Assembly (NCBI GenBank): GCA_963806325.1
Contig: CAWDXL010000002.1
Span: forward strand, 128,802-192,801
Source: Candidatus Parcubacteria bacterium
GTDB lineage: Bacteria; Patescibacteriota; Minisyncoccia; Phycocordibacterales; JAKAEA01
Direction of reading: 5' to 3'
DNA: 64,000 bases
In this document: piece by piece, positions 36,306 to 52,864 of the stretch
Layout: the number at the start of each line of letters is the position of its first letter
Position numbering within the stretch: the stretch's first letter is position 1
Position numbers and translations under genes: made by a program
The notes under the pieces: generated by a model
What the model was told of the DNA's origin: nothing
The model's database searches: none
What the model saw: the letters and a program-made list of their open reading frames with translations, nothing else

Positions 36306-36328
36306 ATGTTGTCTATATCTGACAACAA
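36306..36328. promoter_or_regulatory. palindromic operator site 1 (aTGTTGTC-tatatct-GACAACAA) with -35/-10-like promoter on minus strand
   Basis: Perfect 8-bp inverted repeat with a 7-bp AT spacer. On the minus strand it is preceded by TTGACT-N17-TTTTAT. It lies ~27 nt upstream of the ORF start at 36280. Confidence 0.6.
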
Positions 36329-38067: not shown

Positions 38068-38090
38068 TTGTTGTCTATATCTGACAACAA
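38068..38090. promoter_or_regulatory. palindromic operator site 2 (TTGTTGTC-tatatct-GACAACAA)
   Basis: Perfect palindrome. The minus-strand TTGACT-N17-CTTTAT sits upstream, ~75 nt before the ATG at 37992. Confidence 0.6.
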
Positions 38091-38250: not shown

Positions 38251-39858
38251 CTAAGAAGTCTTGACCGGTATCTCGATATAAAATTGTGAGCCGGTGTTTG
38301 CACCTTCCGATTCTGCCCAGACGCGGCCGCTCATCGATTCAATCATGTTGCGGGCAATGTAGAGGCCGAGGCCGGTGCCAAGAATATTGGTCTCGTTGGC
38401 ATTTTCAGCCCGGCTAAATTTTTGGAAGAGCTTCGGCATGGTAGTAGCAGGAATGCCGACGCCGGTGTCAGAAATCTTGATGATGCTCTTGCCCGACTGC
38501 TCGGATATCGACACATTCACTTTAATATTGCCGTGAGGAGTATATTTGATAGAGTTGTCGAGAATGTTGCCGATGACCTGCTTCACCTTTCCTTTGTCGG
38601 CGTGGACCATATAATTTTTGTTCTGCTCAAATGTAAATTCGAGTGCAAGCCCGCGCTTCTCCACATTGGGCCGATATTCGCTTATCACTTCTTCCGCCAG
38701 CTTTTCAATATCAAAATCTGAATAGTCATATTTCATCTTGCCGCCTTCAATGCGCGACACATCAAGAAAATCACCAACGATGGTCACGAGATTGTTGGTC
38801 GAACTCATAATAATAGTAAGGGCCTGTGCAATCTCGGGTGAAACGGGACCATAATCCCCTTCTTGTACGAGAGAGATGTAGCCTTTTATGGCTGTAAGCG
38901 GCGCACGGATCTGGTGCGTAGCGAGCGAGACGAATTCATTTTTTAGAGCATCGAGCTCTTTTAGGCGCTCATTGGCAAACTCAATCTTAAACATGTCCCC
39001 GACCATGCGGATGCTAAAGATGAGGACAAGGATAAAGACACTGATGCGGAAGATGACAAGAGAGAGCGTGTTGGCAAAAATAATTTCGATAAAGCTGGTT
39101 ACGGTGAGAGCAAAAGCAAAGGTGAACGTCGTAATATTTTTTATGTTGAAAAGCTTGTGCCTATAGATTGCATAAGCTGTAAAAGCGATAAAAGGAAAAA
39201 TAAAAACGGCACCGAGGGGGATAAAATTATATAGGTTAAAGAATGCTGGGAGTAAGAAGTTTAATATAATTACTAAAGAGAAAGTTAAAATAATACCTAT
39301 TAAAACAATTTTAAACTGTCCTTTTTCTGTACCATGAGCCTGTATTGTTTTTTTAACAAACAAATATATTCCATAGCCCACAAGATACAAGACGAGAATA
39401 GCAAAAGGAATAATTCCCCAGCCTTCATTTACTCGCGCAACTGTACCAATAGTTACGCCTCCATCAATACTTTTAAAAATTGCAGGGGTAAGAGCAGAAA
39501 GTGATATTAAGATGCTTAAGGGTGTAAGTATGGTTTTATAGAACTTGGGGAAAAGTACTTCGGATCGTGGAAATACATATAAAAGTTGAAATAGTGTAAA
39601 AGCAAACCATACCGAAGAGAACATAAGTAGTCTTAGAAATGCTAAAACAATCTGAGGAGAATCTGATTGATAGTTTAGGTAATTAAAAGTACTCCAAAAA
39701 GATACCGCTACGGCTAAATACAGAAAAGATTTATTTGTTATATTTTTTCTGTTACTAAAATAAACTGCGACCCCCAAAATAAGAATAGCGGCAATCGAAA
39801 TGCCGACAGAAAGAAGAATCAAGATTCTGAAAAGGTAAGCTACCAAAAAAATTTTCAA
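38251..39858 (-). CDS. sensor histidine kinase (multi-TM sensor, HisKA + HATPase_c); no cognate response regulator nearby
   Basis: About 7 TM helices, an H-box 'LATHQIRAPLTAIKGY', an N-box 'NILDNSIKYT', and a G-box 'GTGLGLYIARNM'. Confidence 0.85.
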   Translation of the reverse strand: MKIFLVAYLFRILILLSVGISIAAILILGVAVYFSNRKNITNKSFLYLAVAVSFWSTFNYLNYQSDSPQIVLAFLRLLMFSSVWFAFTLFQLLYVFPRSEVLFPKFYKTILTPLSILISLSALTPAIFKSIDGGVTIGTVARVNEGWGIIPFAILVLYLVGYGIYLFVKKTIQAHGTEKGQFKIVLIGIILTFSLVIILNFLLPAFFNLYNFIPLGAVFIFPFIAFTAYAIYRHKLFNIKNITTFTFAFALTVTSFIEIIFANTLSLVIFRISVFILVLIFSIRMVGDMFKIEFANERLKELDALKNEFVSLATHQIRAPLTAIKGYISLVQEGDYGPVSPEIAQALTIIMSSTNNLVTIVGDFLDVSRIEGGKMKYDYSDFDIEKLAEEVISEYRPNVEKRGLALEFTFEQNKNYMVHADKGKVKQVIGNILDNSIKYTPHGNIKVNVSISEQSGKSIIKISDTGVGIPATTMPKLFQKFSRAENANETNILGTGLGLYIARNMIESMSGRVWAESEGANTGSQFYIEIPVKTS

Positions 39859-39867
39859 GTTGTCCTC

Positions 39868-40824
39868 CTAGCATGCCTTCTTAATTAAAAGGTATTGACC
39901 TGTTTGAGTATAGAATTTTACTTTTCCTTTGCATTTTTCTGCATACTGCAAAATATCCTTTTTTCTTAAAAATCTAAAATTTGAAAAAAGTTCAGCATTT
40001 AAGAAATGTGGATGGTTCCAACCCACAATGGTTTGTGGAATAATAACCATCCAGCTCCTAAAACCATCGTACTCAAAAATATTCTCCGTGATATTATTTA
40101 TCACAGCATCAAATTTTGGTTGCAATGTTAATGGTAGATGGTGTTTGAAAAGCGAGTGATAGATTATGTTAAAATATTTTTTGGGAAAAAATTTATCAAG
40201 ATTAAAAATATCATTTTTACATAAAATAAGTACCACCTTTTTTTGAGATGTTCTTTTTATAGATTCAACCTTAGTCTCATCTAAATTTTCTACCTCGTAA
40301 AAGTCTATCTTGTCAAAAATACCCTTAAGATTGTCTTTTGCAATTACTTGAGTTGTGGGTGATTTATCAACCGCAATCATAACAATCTTATGTTTAAAGT
40401 TAGAGGAAAGTATTTTTTTAATTATCTGATGATCAAGTTCCATGCCACCTGCACCAAGGTCAGCCATTACCACATCACTATTCTGTGAAAAAATAAAATT
40501 TGTTATTGTCTCAACAATAGGTTTAACAAGACCAGGTCTATCCTTTTCTTGCATCTCAATAAGTCTTTTATGCATCAACACATCCCACTCCTCCACTGGA
40601 AAATCAGTGAGTTCCAAGAGCTTTAAGCTATCGAGCTTAGGAGCCCGGAAAAAAAGCCACTTGAGATACGTCGGAAAATTTTTGATAGCCTTAAGAAAGG
40701 CAATATTCTCTTCTATTGCATACATTTCATCTTTATACTCAGGATTTTTCTTAAACGACTCCAATTTTTCAAGAGCACTTTTAATCTCGATATCTCGTGT
40801 GTTTTGCATATTATTTGTATTCAA
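39868..40824 (-). CDS. class I SAM-dependent methyltransferase
   Basis: Motif I 'VVMADLGAGGMEL'. It overlaps the upstream nitroreductase gene by 14 nt, which suggests an operon. Confidence 0.65.
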   Translation of the reverse strand: MNTNNMQNTRDIEIKSALEKLESFKKNPEYKDEMYAIEENIAFLKAIKNFPTYLKWLFFRAPKLDSLKLLELTDFPVEEWDVLMHKRLIEMQEKDRPGLVKPIVETITNFIFSQNSDVVMADLGAGGMELDHQIIKKILSSNFKHKIVMIAVDKSPTTQVIAKDNLKGIFDKIDFYEVENLDETKVESIKRTSQKKVVLILCKNDIFNLDKFFPKKYFNIIYHSLFKHHLPLTLQPKFDAVINNITENIFEYDGFRSWMVIIPQTIVGWNHPHFLNAELFSNFRFLRKKDILQYAEKCKGKVKFYTQTGQYLLIKKAC

Positions 40825-41863
40825 TCTGTGGCTCCATTCTCATTGCTCGTGCCGATGGGGCATCAGCATAGCCGAGGCGCATAAGCATGGGGATTTTCTT
40901 TCCTTGCACACCGAACGTATCCTCGATGGCATGATAGGCCTCATCTATTGCCTTCAGATGCTCTTTAGAAAAAGAAGCCGTGTCTCCTCCATCTATTCTC
41001 AGTTTAAAATAAAGCACGCCCGTGCATGGGTGTATGCTAAGGCCAAGTTTTGTAGCGGTGAGCCATACCCGCTCGACGGCCCTGCCTGCATTTATATAAT
41101 CTTTGTCGGTGCTTGCTTGTATTACGATCACGCCGAGTGCGGCAGATTTTGCATACTTCTCAGCATTTTCTTTTTCAATAGCTTTTGAGACTCCAGCAAT
41201 ATTAAAAATTTTCAAAATAGCCCAGCTTTTAAAAATTTTTACAGCTTTAAGCTGATGAGGTAAAAATTCGAGCGTCTTGATATAGAATCCCCCGGCTTTA
41301 TACTGCTCATTTTCATTCCATAAAATATGATTATAGAAAAAGGTGTGGAGAGCTTTATTCTCAAAAATGATCCGCTCATTGAGAGCAATTGCCTTCCCTG
41401 CTTTATCAAGAGACGGCTGATCATCAATAATTTTAAATTCACCAAATCCAGTACCTCTTGCATTTTCTATGAGTGCCTTTTTTTGATCATTATTAAGTTT
41501 GACGGGAGTATTTTCTTTTCTGTTGGTGCCGCGCAACGGTATCACCTGATACAAATCATCCTCTTTGATCGCTGATTTTTCCAAAGTCACTACCGAAACA
41601 AGATTTTTAATATTCTTATCGGGCAATACAGCTACGCTTGCTCTATATCCAAAGTGCGAAGCGCTGATAACAATATTTTCTATCAGGGCTCCGTGTGCTA
41701 CAAGGGAGCCTTTTTGCTCAAAATTGTACAGAGACTGATCTGCTTCCGGAATAATAAAAATAGAAATTTTGTTGCCCTCTACAATAAACTTCCATGGCTG
41801 GCAATTTTCTCCCGACGGAGCTTTGACACCATCGGTTATTATTTTTTGGATGTCATTGTTCAT
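40811..41863 (-). CDS. nitroreductase-fold FMN oxidoreductase, two-lobed/tandem architecture
   Basis: 'APSGENCQPWKF' at the N-terminus, with a second nitroreductase-like half ('AALGVIVIQAS...AGRAVERVWLTATKLGL'). Total length 350 aa. Confidence 0.65.
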   Translation of the reverse strand: MNNDIQKIITDGVKAPSGENCQPWKFIVEGNKISIFIIPEADQSLYNFEQKGSLVAHGALIENIVISASHFGYRASVAVLPDKNIKNLVSVVTLEKSAIKEDDLYQVIPLRGTNRKENTPVKLNNDQKKALIENARGTGFGEFKIIDDQPSLDKAGKAIALNERIIFENKALHTFFYNHILWNENEQYKAGGFYIKTLEFLPHQLKAVKIFKSWAILKIFNIAGVSKAIEKENAEKYAKSAALGVIVIQASTDKDYINAGRAVERVWLTATKLGLSIHPCTGVLYFKLRIDGGDTASFSKEHLKAIDEAYHAIEDTFGVQGKKIPMLMRLGYADAPSARAMRMEPQIEYK

Positions 41864-41990: not shown

Positions 41991-42767
41991 ATGCTTGTAA
42001 AAGACCTTATAGAATTTGGACTTAATGAAAAAGAAGCAAAGGCTTATCTTGCTCTGCTCGAGCTTGAAGTGGCGGGCGTGCAGGAGATTTCTAAAGCAGC
42101 CGGTATCAATAGAAGCTCGGCGTATATTACCCTTGAGGCACTCAAGGAGCGTGGACTCGTCAGTATTTCTGATGACAAAAAAGTGCGAAGATATGTAGCT
42201 ACGTCTCCCGATGCAATTCTTAGAACTGCAGAAGATATGGTCGCCAAGCAAGAACGTATTCAGAAAAAAATATCAGCGATGATTCCGGAGATGAAAGCTT
42301 TATATAAGGGAGTGAAAAAGAAACCAATAATACAAGTGTATGAGGGTAAACAAGGACTTATAAATTGTTTTGAAGAAACTCTTAAAAACAAAGAAAAATT
42401 GATGAGAGTGTGGTCTGCTCCAGCAAATTTAGGAAGGATTATTTATGAATATTTGCCTGGGTATATTAGCAAAAGACTTGGTCTGGGAATAAAAATGATC
42501 GGTATCCACCCAGATAATGGAATACATAAGAAAATGGCACATGATATTAGTCAGGCTCCTGATGAAAACTTACTCATACCATCGGATAAATACAATTTTA
42601 CTGCCGACCTGGCAATCTATGATGATAAAATTAGCTACATGTCTAGTGAGAACGATGGGCTAGCTGTTATTATTGAAAGCAAAGAAATATCTGAGGTTAT
42701 GAAAAGCATTTTTGATCTTGCGTGGGAGGAGGCGAAAAGGTTGAGCAAGGGTGAGAAGAAATCATGA
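41991..42767 (+). CDS. TrmB-family transcriptional regulator
   Basis: N-terminal wHTH 'FGLNEKEAKAYLALLELEVAGVQEISKAAGINRSSAYITLEALKERGLV', plus a C-terminal effector-domain-like region. Confidence 0.75.
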   Translation: MLVKDLIEFGLNEKEAKAYLALLELEVAGVQEISKAAGINRSSAYITLEALKERGLVSISDDKKVRRYVATSPDAILRTAEDMVAKQERIQKKISAMIPEMKALYKGVKKKPIIQVYEGKQGLINCFEETLKNKEKLMRVWSAPANLGRIIYEYLPGYISKRLGLGIKMIGIHPDNGIHKKMAHDISQAPDENLLIPSDKYNFTADLAIYDDKISYMSSENDGLAVIIESKEISEVMKSIFDLAWEEAKRLSKGEKKS

Positions 42768-42903: not shown

Positions 42904-43752
42904 TTATAATGCAGATATAAATCTTAGAAAATTTCGACTCTCAGTTTCGGGTAGTAGACTGCCTAGCTTTGTATTTGGAGTATATGTAGCACCATGCCAA
43001 TCACTTCCACCAGTTATGACTAAATTATATTTTTTTGCAAGCTTTTCTAGAGTATTTATCTGCTCTGGAGTATGTGAAGGATAATATACTTCAATACCCT
43101 GTAGTCCGCACAACACAAGTTCACTAATGAAGTTTTCATAATTTTCTTCGATCCAAGCCTCTCATAAATTCTGCCCGAATGTGCAATGACCACAATCCCG
43201 CCGTTTTTCTTTATGAGATCTATAACAGTCTTTGGATTAAACATCCACGAATCGTCTTCCTCAACAAATACATATTGTTTAAGGGCATCTTTGATTGTGA
43301 TTTTTTGTTTTAAAAAAAGACATACTAAGCGTGCAAGTGTGTTTCTTGTAATATATTGTTCGTGATGTTTATTATATATATTCTTCAAAATTTAGGTTTA
43401 TTCCCGGTAGCTCTCTGTTTATTTTTTCGATAATTTTTTTAGCTCGGATATTATATCCATCAATGACCGGTTTCAAGGCACTATTTATCTCGAGATTAAA
43501 TTTCTTAGAATATCCGAGCATGTGTATTGATATATTCCTTTTTTTATCGATACATGAAATTTCTATACCATCTACAAAGTATACATTGATCGCTTTTGCA
43601 TCGCGCTTGATATCCTGTACTTTAGGACTAATATAATTATGATCTACGACTGAAAAAAGTGATATACCACTTTCTTTGATTTTAGAAAGTACATATTTAG
43701 GGGAATGCTCTCCGTCTGAATAGTATGAGTGAATGTGAAGATCTGTTTTCAT
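42904..43752 (-). pseudogene. PHP-domain phosphoesterase split across three reading frames
   Basis: 43372..43752 carries 'DLHIHSYYSDG'. 43056..43388 carries 'GGIVVIAHSGR'. 42904..43116 carries 'GIEVYYPSH...ITGGSDWHG'. All three are collinear with one PHP protein. Confidence 0.6.
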
Positions 43753-44667: not shown

Positions 44668-44690
44668 TTGTTGTCTATATATAACAACAA
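44668..44690. promoter_or_regulatory. palindromic operator site 3 (TTGTTGTC-tatatat-AACAACAA)
   Basis: Minus-strand TTGACA-N17-TTATTT lies upstream. The site is ~86 nt before the start at 44582. Confidence 0.55.
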
Positions 44691-45555: not shown

Positions 45556-45885
45556 CTATTCGATATCTCTCTTTTTGGTAAAAAATCCCTGCCGAAGGCG
45601 AAAAGCTATTCGTCTGTCGTGATGAACAATAGGCATACCAATCACTTGTTTGCATGTGGCGCATGTGAGCGGCGCAATATTTTTAGGATCTGTAGACCCT
45701 CTATCATATTGCAATTTCTCAAAATTTTCTGGTCCAAATATCCGATTAAGATAGCAACGCTTCAGTTTTCCATCACTATCTTTTTGATAATGAAGCAGTT
45801 CAGCACCACACAGACAAAAAAGCCTGATCATGAATGCTTTTCCGCCACGTATCTTGCGGTACTTGTCGTTTTTCATTTTCACCAT
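45556..45885 (-). CDS. small zinc-ribbon protein (CxxC...CxxC), function unknown
   Basis: 'FCLCGAELL ... LTCATCKQV'. It is the last gene of the rSAM-peptide-peptidase unit. Confidence 0.4.
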   Translation of the reverse strand: MVKMKNDKYRKIRGGKAFMIRLFCLCGAELLHYQKDSDGKLKRCYLNRIFGPENFEKLQYDRGSTDPKNIAPLTCATCKQVIGMPIVHHDRRIAFRLRQGFFTKKRDIE

Positions 45886-45945
45886 AAAACCAATATCTTA
45901 TAGAGGTAGGGTGTTGAAATTTAATCTTTCAATTTCTTAAATTAC

Positions 45946-46578
45946 TCAAATTAGCCTCTGTTTATTTATTTCTTCATAAGTGAGATTGAATCCGTATTCT
46001 TTTGTGAAAGATTCTTCAAACTTCTCTTTTGTTTTAATATTCTTTAAATTTTTAATAAAATTGAGCAACTTTTGCTTGCCAAATTTTTCAACGAGACCAT
46101 CAACAAAAAAACCTGCTTCGCTATATACCTCTTTTCCTCCAACTTCATAAAACTCAAGGAATTTACTAAATACTATCGGTTTTTTCTTGAATTTAATTTG
46201 ACCCGATGTATATATTGCAACACCCTCATTGAGCCATACAGGTGTATGGTTTCCGCCTGCAAGAATATTATAAAAAGAGTGGCTTAGTTCGTGCTTTATT
46301 AATGCAGAGTACTCATCTGGGTGGTACACATGATCACTCTCTTTTCCAAAATTATCCTTATTTAATATATATACTGTTTTCCCTTCTGACCAACCGACTA
46401 TCCATTTCTCAGTTTCCTCACCTTTCAAAAGATTGATAGTTTCACGATTATCAACAATAACGATTTTGGGAAGATGGTGTATCCAGTTAATTTCATAGAA
46501 AATATTTAAATCACTCATTGAATTCTTATATACACTTTCCAGAAAATCATCTTTTGTTAAATTTATTTTAAATATCAT
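45946..46578 (-). CDS. gluzincin-type (peptidase MA-like) zinc metallopeptidase
   Basis: 'IKHELSHSF' (HExxH) followed by 'WLNEGVAIY', which is M1-like HExxH...NEG geometry. Confidence 0.55.
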   Translation of the reverse strand: MIFKINLTKDDFLESVYKNSMSDLNIFYEINWIHHLPKIVIVDNRETINLLKGEETEKWIVGWSEGKTVYILNKDNFGKESDHVYHPDEYSALIKHELSHSFYNILAGGNHTPVWLNEGVAIYTSGQIKFKKKPIVFSKFLEFYEVGGKEVYSEAGFFVDGLVEKFGKQKLLNFIKNLKNIKTKEKFEESFTKEYGFNLTYEEINKQRLI

Positions 46579-46608
46579 GTTTGTAGTTAAATTGTAGCAT
46601 AAAATAAA

Positions 46609-46639
46609 AGGAGAGGTCGGGGTTTAATCCGCCTCTCCT
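46609..46639 (-). terminator. hairpin (attenuator/partial terminator) immediately after the Cys-rich peptide ORF
   Basis: aggagagg-N16-cctctcct, followed on the minus strand by TTTATTTTATG. Confidence 0.35.
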
Positions 46640-46645
46640 GTCGTT

Positions 46646-46777
46646 CTACTTATCACAGTCACTGGCGCAGTCACATGAGACACAGTCGTAGCAGGCACCG
46701 TTGTCACACGACAGACTTTGTGTGCCAGTCCGTACTTCCGTCTCCACAAGAGACACGAAACCATCTTCTTGCTGCAT
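46646..46777 (-). CDS. 43-aa Cys/Asp-rich putative RiPP precursor peptide (MQQEDGFVSLVETEVRTGTQSLSCDNGACYDCVSCDCASDCDK)
   Basis: Absent from the ORF track because it is under 60 aa. It has a strong RBS (GGAGGTG-N9-ATG). The core carries 6 Cys and 5 Asp in its C-terminal 20 aa. It lies 42 nt downstream of the rSAM/SPASM gene. Confidence 0.6.
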   Translation of the reverse strand: MQQEDGFVSLVETEVRTGTQSLSCDNGACYDCVSCDCASDCDK

Positions 46778-46819
46778 GATAATTATCACCTCCTTTCTAT
46801 TTGAATGTACTATTAATTT

Positions 46820-48133
46820 TTATATCAATGATACAGCATTGCGACGTGCAAGTCCCCACACAAACTCCTGTGGATCAAGTCCCCACCAGTCAATTGTTTT
46901 GGTAACAATGTTGTATGTGGTCTCAGATTTCAACTGACTTAATACAGCAAAACCGTTGTGATCCAAAAACACGTTATTATTACTAGAAACAAAGACCCCG
47001 CCAAAAGCTTCCCTTCTTAATCTAAAAATTGGCGTTTTAAAACAGCCGATTGAAACTTTCTGTGGATGTTTCTTTGAAAGTTTAATGGCCTCTATCATTT
47101 CTTCGACATGATCAAGTGCAGTTAGGGAGTCCAACCCATTAATTTTACCGGTACTAGTTTTTGCCTCCATCCGACAACCGGAACCGCACATGTTAAGCAT
47201 GTTGCAAGTCGAGCACTCGGTAGGGACATTGACTCTTTGGCTCCACGGATCCATTTTTGCCCAAATCGTACCAAGGTCTTCTTTTAGTAAATTCCCACAT
47301 GATGTGTCGAGATGAGGACAAGGCCTCACTGAACCATCGTATGAGATAGTGGCTGTAGTAACTCCCGCATTACATCTTCTCGACGTAAATAGTTCTGGGT
47401 GTTTGACGCCATACAAACCACAATACGGGATTGGCTCAAGACTATCCACATGAAGGCCGAGATTTTCGTGGATCCAACAAAGGTCGTTGAGAAACTGAAT
47501 TAATTGCGGTCGATTTACTTGTAGATGAGAGAAGTCTGAACAGTTTCCAGGACATCCGGCTTTAGTTGCCATGAAGTTATTGATTCCGAGCTTGGCAACA
47601 AATTTTGCTGTTTCTATCACTTGACCGTGATTAATTTGAGAAACAACCATATTCGCCGATACTCGAATTCCAGCATCCTGAGCATTTTTGATTCCTTCAA
47701 CCAATTTTCTAAAAGACCCCTGTCTTTGGGTAATGGAGTCGTGTATCTCAGGGGTGGGACCTAGAATCGAGGTTAGTGTATGATCAAGTCCTGCGCGCTT
47801 AAGACTTCTTGCTTTTTCTACAGTAAGTGGCACAAGATTTGAATTTAAACCAACCCCCATATTCATTGATCGAGCATACTCGATGCTCGAGAGAGTTGTT
47901 GTAAAATTAAGAAGAGGTTCCCCACCAGTTATGCTCACATTAAATACTTCAGCCTCACCAAGTTTTGCAAGTATGCTTAAGGCATCTTTTTCACTGAGTG
48001 AAACATTCTGTAAACAAGATGCTGTCTTCTCGTCTTTTTCCCTCCAAAAATTATAGCAATGAACGCATCTACTCGTACATTCTCCAGTGACTTCAATCTG
48101 GACATTAAGTGGCGATCTCAATCTCTTGTTCAT
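46820..48133 (-). CDS. radical SAM / SPASM-domain peptide-modifying enzyme
   Basis: CxxxCxxC 'TGECTSRCVHCYNF' and a C-terminal SPASM Cys cluster ('CNAGVTTATISYDGSVRPCPHL ... CSTCNMLNMCGSGC'). The start is ATG 48133 with an AGGAG RBS. Confidence 0.8.
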   Translation of the reverse strand: MNKRLRSPLNVQIEVTGECTSRCVHCYNFWREKDEKTASCLQNVSLSEKDALSILAKLGEAEVFNVSITGGEPLLNFTTTLSSIEYARSMNMGVGLNSNLVPLTVEKARSLKRAGLDHTLTSILGPTPEIHDSITQRQGSFRKLVEGIKNAQDAGIRVSANMVVSQINHGQVIETAKFVAKLGINNFMATKAGCPGNCSDFSHLQVNRPQLIQFLNDLCWIHENLGLHVDSLEPIPYCGLYGVKHPELFTSRRCNAGVTTATISYDGSVRPCPHLDTSCGNLLKEDLGTIWAKMDPWSQRVNVPTECSTCNMLNMCGSGCRMEAKTSTGKINGLDSLTALDHVEEMIEAIKLSKKHPQKVSIGCFKTPIFRLRREAFGGVFVSSNNNVFLDHNGFAVLSQLKSETTYNIVTKTIDWWGLDPQEFVWGLARRNAVSLI

Positions 48134-48206
48134 GAATGACTCCTGTGCTTTTGGCACATAAAACAATTGTCAAAAAACTCTATTTTTGATAGTAATACCA
48201 TTAAAA

Positions 48207-48229
48207 TTGTTGTCTATATCCAACAACAA
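48207..48229. promoter_or_regulatory. palindromic operator site 4 (TTGTTGTC-tatatcc-AACAACAA)
   Basis: Minus-strand TTGACA-N17-TTTTAT lies upstream. The site is ~75 nt before the rSAM ATG (48133). Confidence 0.55.
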
Positions 48230-48947: not shown

Positions 48948-50129
48948 CTATAATCCGAAAATTTTCTTAAAATTATCAGCGACTTCTTTGCGGTGAGCCA
49001 CTTGCTCCGGAGTATTGTAATGCGGATTCAATATGCTATCCATAACGATAAGAGAGCGGTTTGATTCAAGCGGCTGTTTGTTTAAGATTCTGCGTACACA
49101 GTATGCAACAGCGGCACCATTGACGAGTGCTGCACCGCCAAGCTGCGGCCACGAAACAATCGTTTTCCCCATTTCCATGAGCGATTGCTGCATGCGCTCA
49201 GTGACATTTTCTGGTCCGACATGCTGAGTAATTGTTTTGCCGATGCCAAATTTATCAAGCTTGCTCAATGATTCATAGGTCACCCCAGGAAGCCTGCCTT
49301 GGAAAAATGGGGTGTTTCGATCGAGATCGTATCGTTCAACATCAACGACCGCATTGTCACCGTTGTCTGCAGCCATGACAATTGGCACACGGTGTTTCTT
49401 GGCATTTTCGCGAATGAGAAATTTTACGGCAAGATTGTCGAGTTCATCAATCATGACATCAAGCCCTTTGACAAAGGTATCAACATTGTCAGGCTGAATA
49501 CCGTCAGGAAATGTTTCCACAACGGCGTAAGGATTGATTTCATAAATAAATCGGGCAGCCATATTCACTTTAAGCACTCCGAGATTGTCGACGCCGGAAA
49601 GAATCCTATTTGTATTTGAAAGCGCGAGGCGATCCATGTCGGCGAGCTTCATGTGCTTTGCTCCGCCTTGAAGCGCAAGAGCAAACGCTACACTCGATCC
49701 GACACTCAGTCCACCAATGCCAACGGTGGCGTTATAAAATTTGTCCTGCTCTTCCTGATTGATAAGGTTTCTGTTGCGGGCTGTGCGCACCATCTGAAAA
49801 TCAGCTTCCGGCAAAACATGAGTCAATTTTGAAATCCACGGGAAAAATACCCACAAGCCATGCTGCCAGAGAGGCTGGATTTTCTGCAAATTTTCATAAA
49901 ATGCTTTAAATTCCTGCCTGTACGTCGGGGTATATACTTTTGTCGGATTTTTGACGCCAAAAAGCTCAAGCTGCTCTTCTTCATAATCGTCAACAATGTG
50001 CTGAATGCTGCCATTATCAAAAAGCTTACTTACCGCAGCCCTGTCTTTCTCGTCTGAGAGATTAAAAAGAACAGGCTTTGATGAAATGTCTCTATTTGCT
50101 TCCTGCGTCAATTTTTTGGCAAGGTCCAT
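48948..50129 (-). CDS. ThiF/MoeB-family E1-like adenylyltransferase with ~120-aa N-terminal extension
   Basis: Rossmann motif 'NATVGIGGLSVGSSVAFALALQGG' and 'DVMIDELDNLAVKFLIRENAKKHRVPIVMAADNG'. Confidence 0.65.
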   Translation of the reverse strand: MDLAKKLTQEANRDISSKPVLFNLSDEKDRAAVSKLFDNGSIQHIVDDYEEEQLELFGVKNPTKVYTPTYRQEFKAFYENLQKIQPLWQHGLWVFFPWISKLTHVLPEADFQMVRTARNRNLINQEEQDKFYNATVGIGGLSVGSSVAFALALQGGAKHMKLADMDRLALSNTNRILSGVDNLGVLKVNMAARFIYEINPYAVVETFPDGIQPDNVDTFVKGLDVMIDELDNLAVKFLIRENAKKHRVPIVMAADNGDNAVVDVERYDLDRNTPFFQGRLPGVTYESLSKLDKFGIGKTITQHVGPENVTERMQQSLMEMGKTIVSWPQLGGAALVNGAAVAYCVRRILNKQPLESNRSLIVMDSILNPHYNTPEQVAHRKEVADNFKKIFGL

Positions 50130-51313: not shown

Positions 51314-52864
51314 TTATTTCTTGACCCATTTCTGCTTGGTGCCGAGGCCAAAGTGTGTCGGATCGCCATGCGGCCAAAAGACGATGCGGGGATCAACACG
51401 TCCCGGGAGCATATGCGCATTATTTTTATGTTCAGCGCTTTTTTCAAGCAGAGACTCTGAAATTTTGTTTTGTACTTCCGATTTGAGCCAGTCTGACTCT
51501 ATAATCCCCTGCTTTAATTCCACATTAATGCTGAGAAACTCATTCTGATCGCTGTCATGCTCGGTCGACATTGTGAATTTTCCGGTTATATATTTATCAA
51601 TGCTCGGATGCTGGAGACCTCCTTTGATATATTCAGGGAAAATAATGGCGCCATAGAGCTTTGTAGAAAGATCTGTACGTTCGTACACATACACGAAAGG
51701 CAACTCAGCAATGGTGTCTTCAATACCCGCCTCATGTGCCTTTTTGCGAAGATCAAAACCTTCTTCCTTAAAAATATTTTCGACATCATTAAAATCCATT
51801 ACGCCGCCGTTGTCGCCGATTTCGTAGCGCAGGAGCGGCAGGGCATTGCTTCCGCTGCAGTAGACTTTGCCGTCTATTTCTTCAAAATTGATGAAGTGAG
51901 GATTAAATTGGGCAAACGTTGGCAACCGATTAGCCTCTTTAAAAAGCTTTGTATAGAGATTTTTATGCTTGAGTGCCAGACGACGGATAAAAATGCTGAG
52001 AGGAGTTTCCTGCGCCATGGTGCCAAGATCGGCGCTGCCATAGACATTCATTGTGTCGCGCAGTACATTTTTAATACCGGTCTTCTCCAAAATGTATTCG
52101 CGGAATTTTTCTGAAAATCCTTCAGCGGCAAAAATTATTTTAAGATTATAATTGTGCCAGAACACCCCATGATCTTCTCCTTCATCGATCACGTCTTTCA
52201 TAAATGGTGGATAGCCACAGAGAATGACCTGATCAAATTTGCCGCCGATATTTTTAAGCGCCTCGTAAATTTCTTTTTTGTTGACGCCTGGTGTAAGAAT
52301 AGTAAGCGGATATCCGCGCTCAGAAATTGTTTTAAAAGCTTCGTATGTAATGACACCGCCAATCCAGACACCCATGCCAAAACATACAAGCACGAGCGTC
52401 GATTTTTCCTTATCAATATTGCTTGTCTTTAAAAACATTTCATGACAAATGGACGATTGCCAGTCAAGAATACTGTTGCGAGGAAAATAAAATGGCGCAC
52501 CGGTGGAGCCTGACGTTGACGTAAATACAAGCGATTGCGTAAGCGTTCCCTGCATACAGAGTTCTTCTAATAGATACTGCCGAAGATAATTTGCCTTATT
52601 CATAATAGGAACTTTCTTGAAATCTTCATATGTTTTTATCTTTACTGGATTGATGCCGTGAGTCTTAAGAAATGGTTTGTAAGCCGGAACTTTGTCTACG
52701 CAAATGTTAAAAAGCCGCACAAGCTGTGCCTCGCGTTCAGCTTTCCAAAAATCACCTTTTTTTGAATAGATAAATCGTAGAAAATCAAGCGGTCGGGCAA
52801 GCTGCGATTTTGTCCGCTTTGATCCAGTCTTCAATGCTGTTTTTTTTGAAATTGCTTTTGCCAT
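51314..52864 (-). CDS. adenylate-forming enzyme, phenylacetate-CoA ligase (PaaK)/CapK-like family
   Basis: AMP-binding motif 'TSGSTGAPFYF', 'YGSADLG', and a C-terminal PaaK-like domain. Confidence 0.65.
   Translation of the reverse strand: MAKAISKKTALKTGSKRTKSQLARPLDFLRFIYSKKGDFWKAEREAQLVRLFNICVDKVPAYKPFLKTHGINPVKIKTYEDFKKVPIMNKANYLRQYLLEELCMQGTLTQSLVFTSTSGSTGAPFYFPRNSILDWQSSICHEMFLKTSNIDKEKSTLVLVCFGMGVWIGGVITYEAFKTISERGYPLTILTPGVNKKEIYEALKNIGGKFDQVILCGYPPFMKDVIDEGEDHGVFWHNYNLKIIFAAEGFSEKFREYILEKTGIKNVLRDTMNVYGSADLGTMAQETPLSIFIRRLALKHKNLYTKLFKEANRLPTFAQFNPHFINFEEIDGKVYCSGSNALPLLRYEIGDNGGVMDFNDVENIFKEEGFDLRKKAHEAGIEDTIAELPFVYVYERTDLSTKLYGAIIFPEYIKGGLQHPSIDKYITGKFTMSTEHDSDQNEFLSINVELKQGIIESDWLKSEVQNKISESLLEKSAEHKNNAHMLPGRVDPRIVFWPHGDPTHFGLGTKQKWVKK

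Follow-up and report, generated by a model that had tools for sequence, protein, structure and literature searches.

A radical SAM/SPASM enzyme, a cysteine-rich peptide, and a metallopeptidase form a probable RiPP cassette of an unclassified family in a Candidatus Parcubacteria genome

Organization of the locus

The window analysed here is a stretch of 64,000 nt from a Candidatus Parcubacteria bacterium (assembly GCA_963806325.1, contig CAWDXL010000002.1, positions 128,802–192,801). Within positions 45556–48166, it carries a radical SAM/SPASM enzyme gene, a gene for a small Cys-rich peptide, and a small metallopeptidase gene, which very probably constitute a cassette for a peptide that is synthesized by ribosomes and then modified post-translationally (a RiPP), of an unclassified family. 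All of the cassette genes lie on the minus strand. An earlier reading made from the letters alone (hereafter, the sequence-only reading) had described these three genes and a Zn-ribbon protein gene, together with a 42-nt gap between the enzyme and peptide genes, a ribosome-binding site, and a hairpin; upon inspection of the sequence, each of these elements was found where that reading had placed it.

The enzyme gene extends over 46820–48133 (437 residues, stop codon included in the coordinates). It had been described as an open reading frame (ORF) of 46820–48166 starting at TTG 48166, and the ORF is indeed present; however, ATG 48133 is the likely start, because an AGGAG sequence lies 7 nt upstream of it and the resulting length of 437 residues equals that of the database protein P0001. 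The precursor peptide gene (46646–46777; ATG at 46777, TAG at 46646–46648) encodes the 43-residue peptide MQQEDGFVSLVETEVRTGTQSLSCDNGACYDCVSCDCASDCDK with six Cys residues, begins 42 nt downstream of the enzyme gene, and is preceded by the Shine–Dalgarno sequence AAAGGAGGTGA (46786–46796). Its leader contains the motif GFVSLVE (G6 to E12; 46742–46762), and its C-terminal core region, CDNGACYDCVSCDCASDCDK (C24 to K43; 46649–46708, with an approximate leader/core boundary), holds all six Cys. An intrinsic terminator, consisting of a hairpin and a U-tract (46599–46649), lies directly 3' of the precursor stop codon; the hairpin had a folding energy of −24.2 kcal/mol (z = −5.44), and 0 of 200 shuffled sequences were as stable. 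The peptidase gene (45946–46578, 210 residues) encodes a small cytoplasmic gluzincin, the proposed leader peptidase, and the gene for the 109-residue Zn-ribbon protein (45556–45885) is located 60 nt further downstream. Upstream of the enzyme gene, a consensus scan (9/12 matches) yielded a sigma-70-like promoter candidate, TAGACA, 16 nt, TACTAT (48189–48216), through which the enzyme and precursor genes may be transcribed. No additional precursor copies were found in the window, and the protein collection that we used had no gene call for the window peptide.

Conservation of the precursor peptide

The protein collection contained 428 homologues of the enzyme, and 120 loci around such homologues (denoted by L and a number) were fetched from metagenomes and species-representative genomes. 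Among the 72 loci in which the enzyme was aligned through its C-terminal domain and the sequence extended at least 250 nt downstream, 59 had a small, Cys-rich ORF next to the enzyme (59 of 65 when seven loci of the sugar-cluster type described below were set aside). In most loci this ORF began approximately 0–80 nt from the enzyme stop codon, and a strong Shine–Dalgarno sequence, typically AAAGGAGGTGA, preceded 40 of the 49 curated peptide genes. The small ORF is a genuine conserved gene, and the sequence-only view of enzyme, peptide, and peptidase as a conserved RiPP-type cassette, with the small ORF conserved and co-located in relatives, was thus borne out.

The peptides shared a common layout, with a leader motif, then a spacer that varies, and a C-terminal core rich in Cys. 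The motif [GQ]F-x-[ST]-[LI]-[LV] was present near the N-terminus of most peptides, and a looser form, F-x-[STK]-[LIVF]-[LIVFMT], was found in 28 of the 49 curated peptides, including nearly all of those whose enzymes were at least 36% identical to that of the window. In an alignment of 35 peptides, C32 and C37 were invariant, and C24 and C29 were retained in at least 90%. The cores varied in length, Cys number, and composition, and their types co-varied with the enzyme clades. The clade of the window had dense CxC arrays, such as CVCYDCVSCDC and CECDCVCDCNCDC, and the clade at 39–45% enzyme identity had the core CDCYDCDYNCEECD. More distant clades showed PPPPC[VY]G[KR] repeat cores with the leader PQFVSILN (approximately 36–38% identity), a CxCxxCxxCxNxCNK core with a different leader, FFVxxxVINR (approximately 33–35%), or a SCIFF-like GGCDxxGCDxCQSGCEGG core (approximately 32–37%). 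In the Pro/Cys branch (L024–L027, L049, L091–L096, and L104), the gene order was enzyme, peptidase, and peptide, and the precursors were 79–99 residues long, with PPPPC[VY]G[KR] cores devoid of acidic residues. Because RiPP precursors are marked by a conserved leader and by hypervariable cores whose variation follows that of the enzyme, we identified the small ORF as a RiPP precursor; it is short, and has the conserved leader and variable core of this class of natural products.

The peptide had been considered not to match the canonical SCIFF motif and possibly to represent a new class, and the comparison with curated models agreed with this view. None of the 35 family peptides matched the SCIFF model TIGR03973 at E-values up to 1. 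The best match to a curated peptide model was to FibroRumin (E = 0.0068, 2 of 35 peptides), otherwise a weak match to NuoI was obtained, and none of these was convincing. A database search with the peptide profile returned three matches, all unnamed.

Radical SAM/SPASM enzyme and its C-terminal domain

A Pfam scan assigned the enzyme to Radical_SAM (PF04055; 74.2 bits against a threshold of 29.5, E = 1.9e-20) and SPASM (PF13186; 29.7 bits, gathering score 21.5). In an alignment of 30 homologues, the radical SAM cluster motif CxxxCxxC (C19/C23/C26; encoded at 48056–48079) was invariant, and the sequence GCPGNCSDFS was a signature of the family. The SPASM auxiliary-cluster region (47174–47422) contained seven invariant Cys residues (C238, C254, C272, C307, C310, C316, and C320), among which C254-x12-G-x4-C272 and C307xxC310x5C316x3C320 conform to the pattern CX9-15GX4C ... 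CX2CX5CX3C. In the alignment to PqqE, the last Cys of the canonical SPASM motif was absent throughout the family; the invariant D335 aligned with the Asp of the PqqE DPAC segment, whose Cys this family lacks. The missing Cys and D335 suggest that one auxiliary cluster may have an open or non-Cys ligand.

No curated NCBIfam family was assigned to the enzyme above its cut-off, and scans of the 30 homologues with NCBIfam and Pfam likewise gave no family-specific assignment above cut-off. The best-scoring curated family was GeoRSP (TIGR04303; 102.7 bits against 400), and the scores for AhbD (94.7 against 500), NirJ2 (92.8 against 500), MftC (80.9 against 265), PqqE (62.9 against 381), SkfB (TIGR04403; 57.6 against 300), PapB (NF047865; 55.7 against 340), and StsB (NF045574; 50.7 against 625) were all below the respective cut-offs. 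The SCIFF maturase model TIGR03974 did not rank within the 25 best families, which extended down to a score of 50.7 bits. The nearest named enzymes came from metagenome-assembled genomes of Candidatus Paceibacterota (55–57% identity). When a profile of the 30 homologues was searched against PDB, SkfB (1.5e-24) was the closest, followed by PqqE (2e-19), SuiB (9e-17), anSME (3e-11), and CteB (2e-10). An AlphaFold (AF2) model of the enzyme reached a predicted local distance difference test (pLDDT) score of 89, and its best Foldseek matches were SuiB at the top, anSME, SkfB, and PqqE.

Residues 336–437, which follow the SPASM domain (46823–47128), had no significant match in Pfam and none in the PDB profile search, and neither this domain nor the peptide has an NCBIfam or Pfam model. 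Modelled alone, the segment reached a pLDDT of 87 and showed a helix, four strands, a helix, a strand, and a helix; Foldseek searches with this model gave the same set of matches with weak E-values. HMMER aligned the segment, without significance, to the N-terminal RiPP recognition element (RRE) of SuiB (RLEKFGGIL against RLRKEEFGAVV). On the basis of fold comparison only, and not of the sequence searches, the enzyme is predicted to carry a PqqD-like winged-helix RRE after its SPASM domain, as would be expected of an RRE-dependent RiPP maturase. Proteusin epimerases, which contain only the radical SAM cluster, have been reported to possess a C-terminal RRE (PMC8326336). We found no description of a SPASM enzyme in which the RRE comes last, nor of the present cassette family, in a literature search that had most subscription journals outside its full-text coverage.

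Relatives in sugar gene clusters

The sequence-only reading had named robust clustering with non-peptide SPASM enzymes, together with a small ORF not conserved or not co-located in relatives, as the outcome that would refute it. The nearest outgroup indeed consists of SPASM enzymes of sugar gene clusters, but these have neither the recognition domain nor the peptide. In the 31 fetched loci of this type, the enzymes were 27–35% identical to the window enzyme and had the motifs CxHCYNFW and GCPGNCxDF in common with it, and most of their alignments ended near residue 337. The neighbouring genes encoded a NeuB-like synthase, a NeuC-like 2-epimerase, and a PseF/KdsB-like cytidylyltransferase, corresponding to a nonulosonic-acid cluster. 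The clade (L050–L086, e.g., L050 1860–7899) occurred in Proteobacteria, Omnitrophota, Desulfobacterota, and other groups, had no curated family, and is presumably sugar-modifying.

These relatives raise the possibility that the window enzyme also acts on a non-peptide substrate and that the small ORF beside it is incidental. We consider this highly improbable, since the two kinds of locus do not overlap (the Cys-rich peptide was found in 0 of the 31 sugar-cluster loci, and sugar genes in none of the peptide loci), the enzymes of the peptide type have the predicted RRE fold, and the leader and the strong ribosome-binding site are conserved over more than 45 distinct loci. The window enzyme differs from non-peptide SPASM enzymes (anSME, heme/NirJ, and sugar-cluster radical SAM enzymes) in having both the predicted RRE and a precursor. 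The co-occurrence of recognition domain and peptide thus points to a peptide maturase, even though its outgroup is of a non-peptide kind.

Metallopeptidase

The peptidase was assigned to the gluzincin family Peptidase_MA_2 (PF13485; 37.5 bits against 32.4) in the Pfam scan, and contained the motifs HELSH (residues 96–100) and WLNEG (115–119), with E118 as the Glu ligand. Its homologues adjoined the enzyme in 35 loci. Among the 58 loci with at least 1.5 kb of downstream sequence, 44 had a small HExxH protein within 3 kb; besides the homologues of the window peptidase, two further small HExxH families of approximately 220–237 and 290 residues were present, neither with Pfam matches. One locus had a transglutaminase-like protein and another a YgjP-like metallopeptidase. 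Leader removal would be the obvious role of these proteins.

In the window, the peptidase gene is probably transcribed separately. A TGnTACAAT sequence resembling an extended −10 element was observed between the terminator and the peptidase ATG, with no Shine–Dalgarno sequence, and the gene may be a separate acquisition that is expressed from a nearly leaderless transcript.

Operator sites and candidate regulators

The cassette had been placed behind the fourth of a series of operator sites, and this was confirmed: a 23-bp palindrome, TTGTTGTCTATATnnnACAACAA, occurs at 36306–36328, 38068–38090, 44668–44690, and 48207–48229 in the same orientation (0.00 copies expected in shuffled sequences), and its fourth copy, TTGTTGTCTATATCCAACAACAA, overlaps the −35 element of the cassette promoter. 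The copies lie upstream of ORF126, ORF181, a nucleotidyltransferase-like ORF, and the radical SAM enzyme gene, respectively, all of them on the minus strand; this arrangement suggests a small regulon under the control of one repressor. Among the related loci, L007 alone had the palindrome close to the enzyme, and L007 is a second assembly of the cassette in this window; because the motif is not near the enzyme in other genomes, this regulation appears to be lineage-specific. A TrmB-family regulator encoded near the cassette (41991–42767, plus strand) is a candidate for binding the palindrome. A TrmB homologue was also found in L010 (3067–3771), where it is divergent from the radical SAM gene and approximately 230 nt upstream, and others were located beside the Zn-ribbon context in L122 (3209–3979) and L123 (43–807).

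Neighbouring genes

The Zn-ribbon protein had been counted as a fourth component of the unit and described as a CxxC-CxxC protein. It does contain Cys residues, but the pattern is one CxC and one CxxC (C24-x-C26 ... C44 ... C75-x-x-C78). The gene lies on the same strand as the peptidase gene and close behind it, as a four-gene unit including a functional Zn-ribbon protein would require. That arrangement is nevertheless very hard to credit and effectively refuted: no homologue was found in the 120 radical SAM loci except in L007, and of the 37 homologues detected (45–77% identity, all unnamed), those in the three genomes examined were all located between the genes for GTP cyclohydrolase II and cytidylate kinase, without a radical SAM gene nearby. 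The Zn-ribbon gene is therefore a neighbour by accident of genome arrangement. In L121, the Zn-ribbon protein was 77% identical to that of the window, and a 516-residue protein (L121 8552–10102; window 51314–52864) was 71% identical. L121 thus shares these two proteins with the window and has no radical SAM cassette between them, which suggests that the cassette belongs to the accessory or flexible part of the genome.

ORF155, the nucleotidyltransferase-like ORF, the PHP fragments, and a ThiF-like gene were also considered as components and rejected, as they had no homologues near any related enzyme. The PHP-domain phosphoesterase (42904–43752, minus strand) is split into three consecutive ORFs of 126, 110, and 70 residues and is probably a frameshifted pseudogene. 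The ThiF-like protein (48948–50129, minus strand) scored 324 bits (cut-off, 476) in a match to the N-terminal half of the model for Rv1355c, and a nitroreductase-family protein (40811–41863, minus strand) is encoded approximately 7 kb away from it; the two halves are fused in Rv1355c, and these genes may be another peptide- or cofactor-modifying pair that flanks the cassette. An Rfam scan of the window gave no rRNA or other match.

Taxonomic distribution

Among the 40 loci with the peptide that came from species-representative genomes, 25 were labelled as Patescibacteria, including Paceibacterota, Kaiser-, Nomura-, Woese-, Levy-, Davies-, Wolfe-, Azam-, Colwell-, and Kerfeldbacteria, and Saccharibacteria. 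Four were unclassified bacteria, and the remainder were assigned to Bdellovibrionota, Gammaproteobacteria, Omnitrophota, Bacteroidales, Nanoarchaeota, and other archaeal bins. L034 and L035 had an identical precursor and near-identical loci in bins labelled Bacteroidales and Crenarchaeota, respectively, which suggests that the bins are contaminated or that a transfer was very recent.

Comparison with known radical SAM peptide systems

Judged by its sequence features, the cassette resembles the Cys-rich radical SAM RiPPs (ranthipeptides and sactipeptides) but falls short of the sequence tests for PapB, SCIFF, SkfB/StsB, and GeoRSP. It differs from the known systems in four points, namely the domain order, the SPASM Cys set, the precursor family, and the protease partner. 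Like the freyrasin/PapB ranthipeptide system, it combines a radical SAM/SPASM maturase with a putatively RRE-guided leader and a Cys/Asp-rich core, and the window core has C-x3-D, C-x2-D, and C-x-D spacings. In contrast to PapB, the RRE is predicted to be C-terminal and the enzyme N-terminus leads straight into the radical SAM core (C19), and the core is a dense CxC/CxxC array, whereas freyrasin has spaced Cys-to-Asp motifs (PMC8326336). With SCIFF and its maturase ScfB (CteB, Tte1186), the cassette shares six Cys in approximately 45 residues, the lack of a dedicated exporter, and one branch with a SCIFF-like core; however, the CteB structure aligned only over the N-terminal part of the radical SAM enzyme, and a putative leader protease accompanies the present family. 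SCIFF has a wide distribution in Clostridia (PMC8326336), but the present family occurs mostly in Patescibacteria and DPANN archaea.

SkfB, the sactisynthase of the sporulation killing factor, is a peptide-modifying, thioether-forming radical SAM enzyme and the closest solved structure by sequence, although the alignment was limited to residues 8–287 of the window enzyme. SuiB of Streptococcus suis, the top fold match, has radical SAM, SPASM, and RRE parts in one chain, but its RRE comes first and not last, and the sequence identity was 17–18%. In the PqqE/PqqD and MftC/MftB systems, the RREs are separate proteins or differently fused, and their precursors share a fixed core, whereas the cores of the present family vary. 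The proteusin epimerases mentioned above are alike in being radical SAM RiPP enzymes with a C-terminal RRE (PMC8326336).

Proposed biosynthesis and alternative explanations

We consider thioether cross-linking, with moderate confidence, to be the most likely chemistry of the cassette. It is proposed because no residue type other than Cys is shared by all core types, and because, among characterised SPASM systems, those rich in Cys (sactipeptides, SCIFF, freyrasin, and NxxcA) and the related non-RiPP enzyme QhpD are all thioether formers (PMC8326336). The pathway as a whole seems somewhat more probable than not to run as follows. The operator-controlled promoter would give a two-gene mRNA, with the enzyme followed by the precursor, that ends at the terminator. 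The C-terminal RRE would then bind the leader motif GFVSLVE as a strand, and the radical SAM core with its SPASM auxiliary clusters would take hydrogen atoms from residues of the 20-residue core, upon which the Cys sulfurs would close intramolecular thioether rings of the sactionine or ranthionine type to give a compact polycyclic peptide. Finally, the adjacent small HExxH metallopeptidase would cut off the leader. Exporter genes are not conserved alongside the cassette, and its product may accordingly function within the cell or serve as a signal. The window core holds one C-x3-D (C32...D36) in addition to CxD and CD spacings. Cys-to-Asp links would be plausible in this peptide.

Several observations weigh against this repressor-controlled thioether pathway. 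No transporter or exporter was conserved with the cassette in the related loci compared, and we know of no characterised thioether precedent with such dense CxC spacing. Cys-to-Asp linkage is not a family-wide rule, given the Pro/Cys branch cores without Asp or Glu. The enzyme is approximately equidistant from all curated SPASM families, including those that do not form thioethers, and GeoRSP, WgkB, AhbD, NirJ2, and MftC scored higher than PapB and SkfB, all far below their cut-offs. As for the peptidase, a strong terminator separates its gene from the enzyme–precursor pair, its G+C content of 30.6% is well below the values of the enzyme gene (41.7%) and the window (42%), and some loci have it on the opposite strand, so that its tie to the pair is one of neighbourhood only.

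The same cassette could instead perform another chemistry (C–C or C–O cross-links, Cys oxidation, or a backbone change) or serve another role, with the core being an intracellular metal- or Fe–S-binding peptide or a cofactor precursor in the manner of pyrroloquinoline quinone (PQQ) or mycofactocin. We regard this as unlikely, although it would agree with the lack of a conserved exporter, with the resemblance of the CxC/CxxC spacing to metallothionein or ferredoxin motifs (as well as the weak NuoI match), with the presence of the cofactor enzymes AhbD, NirJ2, and MftC among the best curated scores, and with the absent final SPASM Cys and the alignment of the invariant D335 with PqqE. Hypervariable cores of this kind are what natural-product RiPPs typically show, in contrast to the fixed precursor cores of PQQ and mycofactocin; a putative dedicated leader protease is usually present, and all scores for cofactor families are far under the cut-offs. 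A further possibility, compatible with thioethers and of similarly low probability, is that the mature peptide is a signal for a nearby histidine kinase with an N-terminal seven-transmembrane (7TM) region (HisKA_7TM; 38251–39858, minus strand), forming a quorum- or host-sensing circuit like that proposed for SCIFF in clostridia, for which a quorum-sensing role has been cited (PMC8326336). Homologues of the kinase were located approximately 0.15–3.5 kb from the enzyme in L001 (7817–9466), L004 (3148–4842), L118 (8124–8978), L119 (5360–6832), and L120 (2062–3651), with 31–38% identity by tblastn in all but L118, which was recognised by clustering. The kinase was present in five of the six non-redundant relatives whose radical SAM enzyme was 55% or more identical and whose flank was usable, and an operator copy lies just downstream of the window kinase gene, so that a shared regulon is possible. 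In the close relatives, the kinase was often accompanied by an unannotated protein of approximately 270 residues. On the other hand, the window kinase is approximately 7 kb away from the cassette, no response regulator or exporter was conserved alongside the kinase, and the association is confined to the closest clade. The signalling role is a lead and not a finding.

Implications

Secondary metabolism is usually considered to be scarce in Patescibacteria and DPANN archaea, whose genomes are tiny. A broader view, which we hold tentatively and consider rather unlikely to be right in all its parts, is that the cassette represents an unclassified RiPP class common in episymbiotic Patescibacteria and DPANN archaea. 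Such a class would have a permuted, C-terminal RRE on a SPASM enzyme of sugar-modifying descent and would introduce a new cross-link topology or type on ultra-dense CxC cores, and its product would be cell-associated, as a 7TM-kinase signal or a metal-binding factor, not a secreted bacteriocin. A three-gene peptide-modification cassette conserved across many such lineages suggests a function worth its genomic cost, and the system is compact, with a 437-residue enzyme and a 43-residue substrate. The unusual domain order, the incomplete SPASM Cys set, and the very dense Cys cores could widen the known chemistry of radical SAM peptide modification. The split from the sugar-cluster relatives provides a case in which a small-molecule radical SAM scaffold was possibly turned into a peptide maturase by the gain of a recognition domain.

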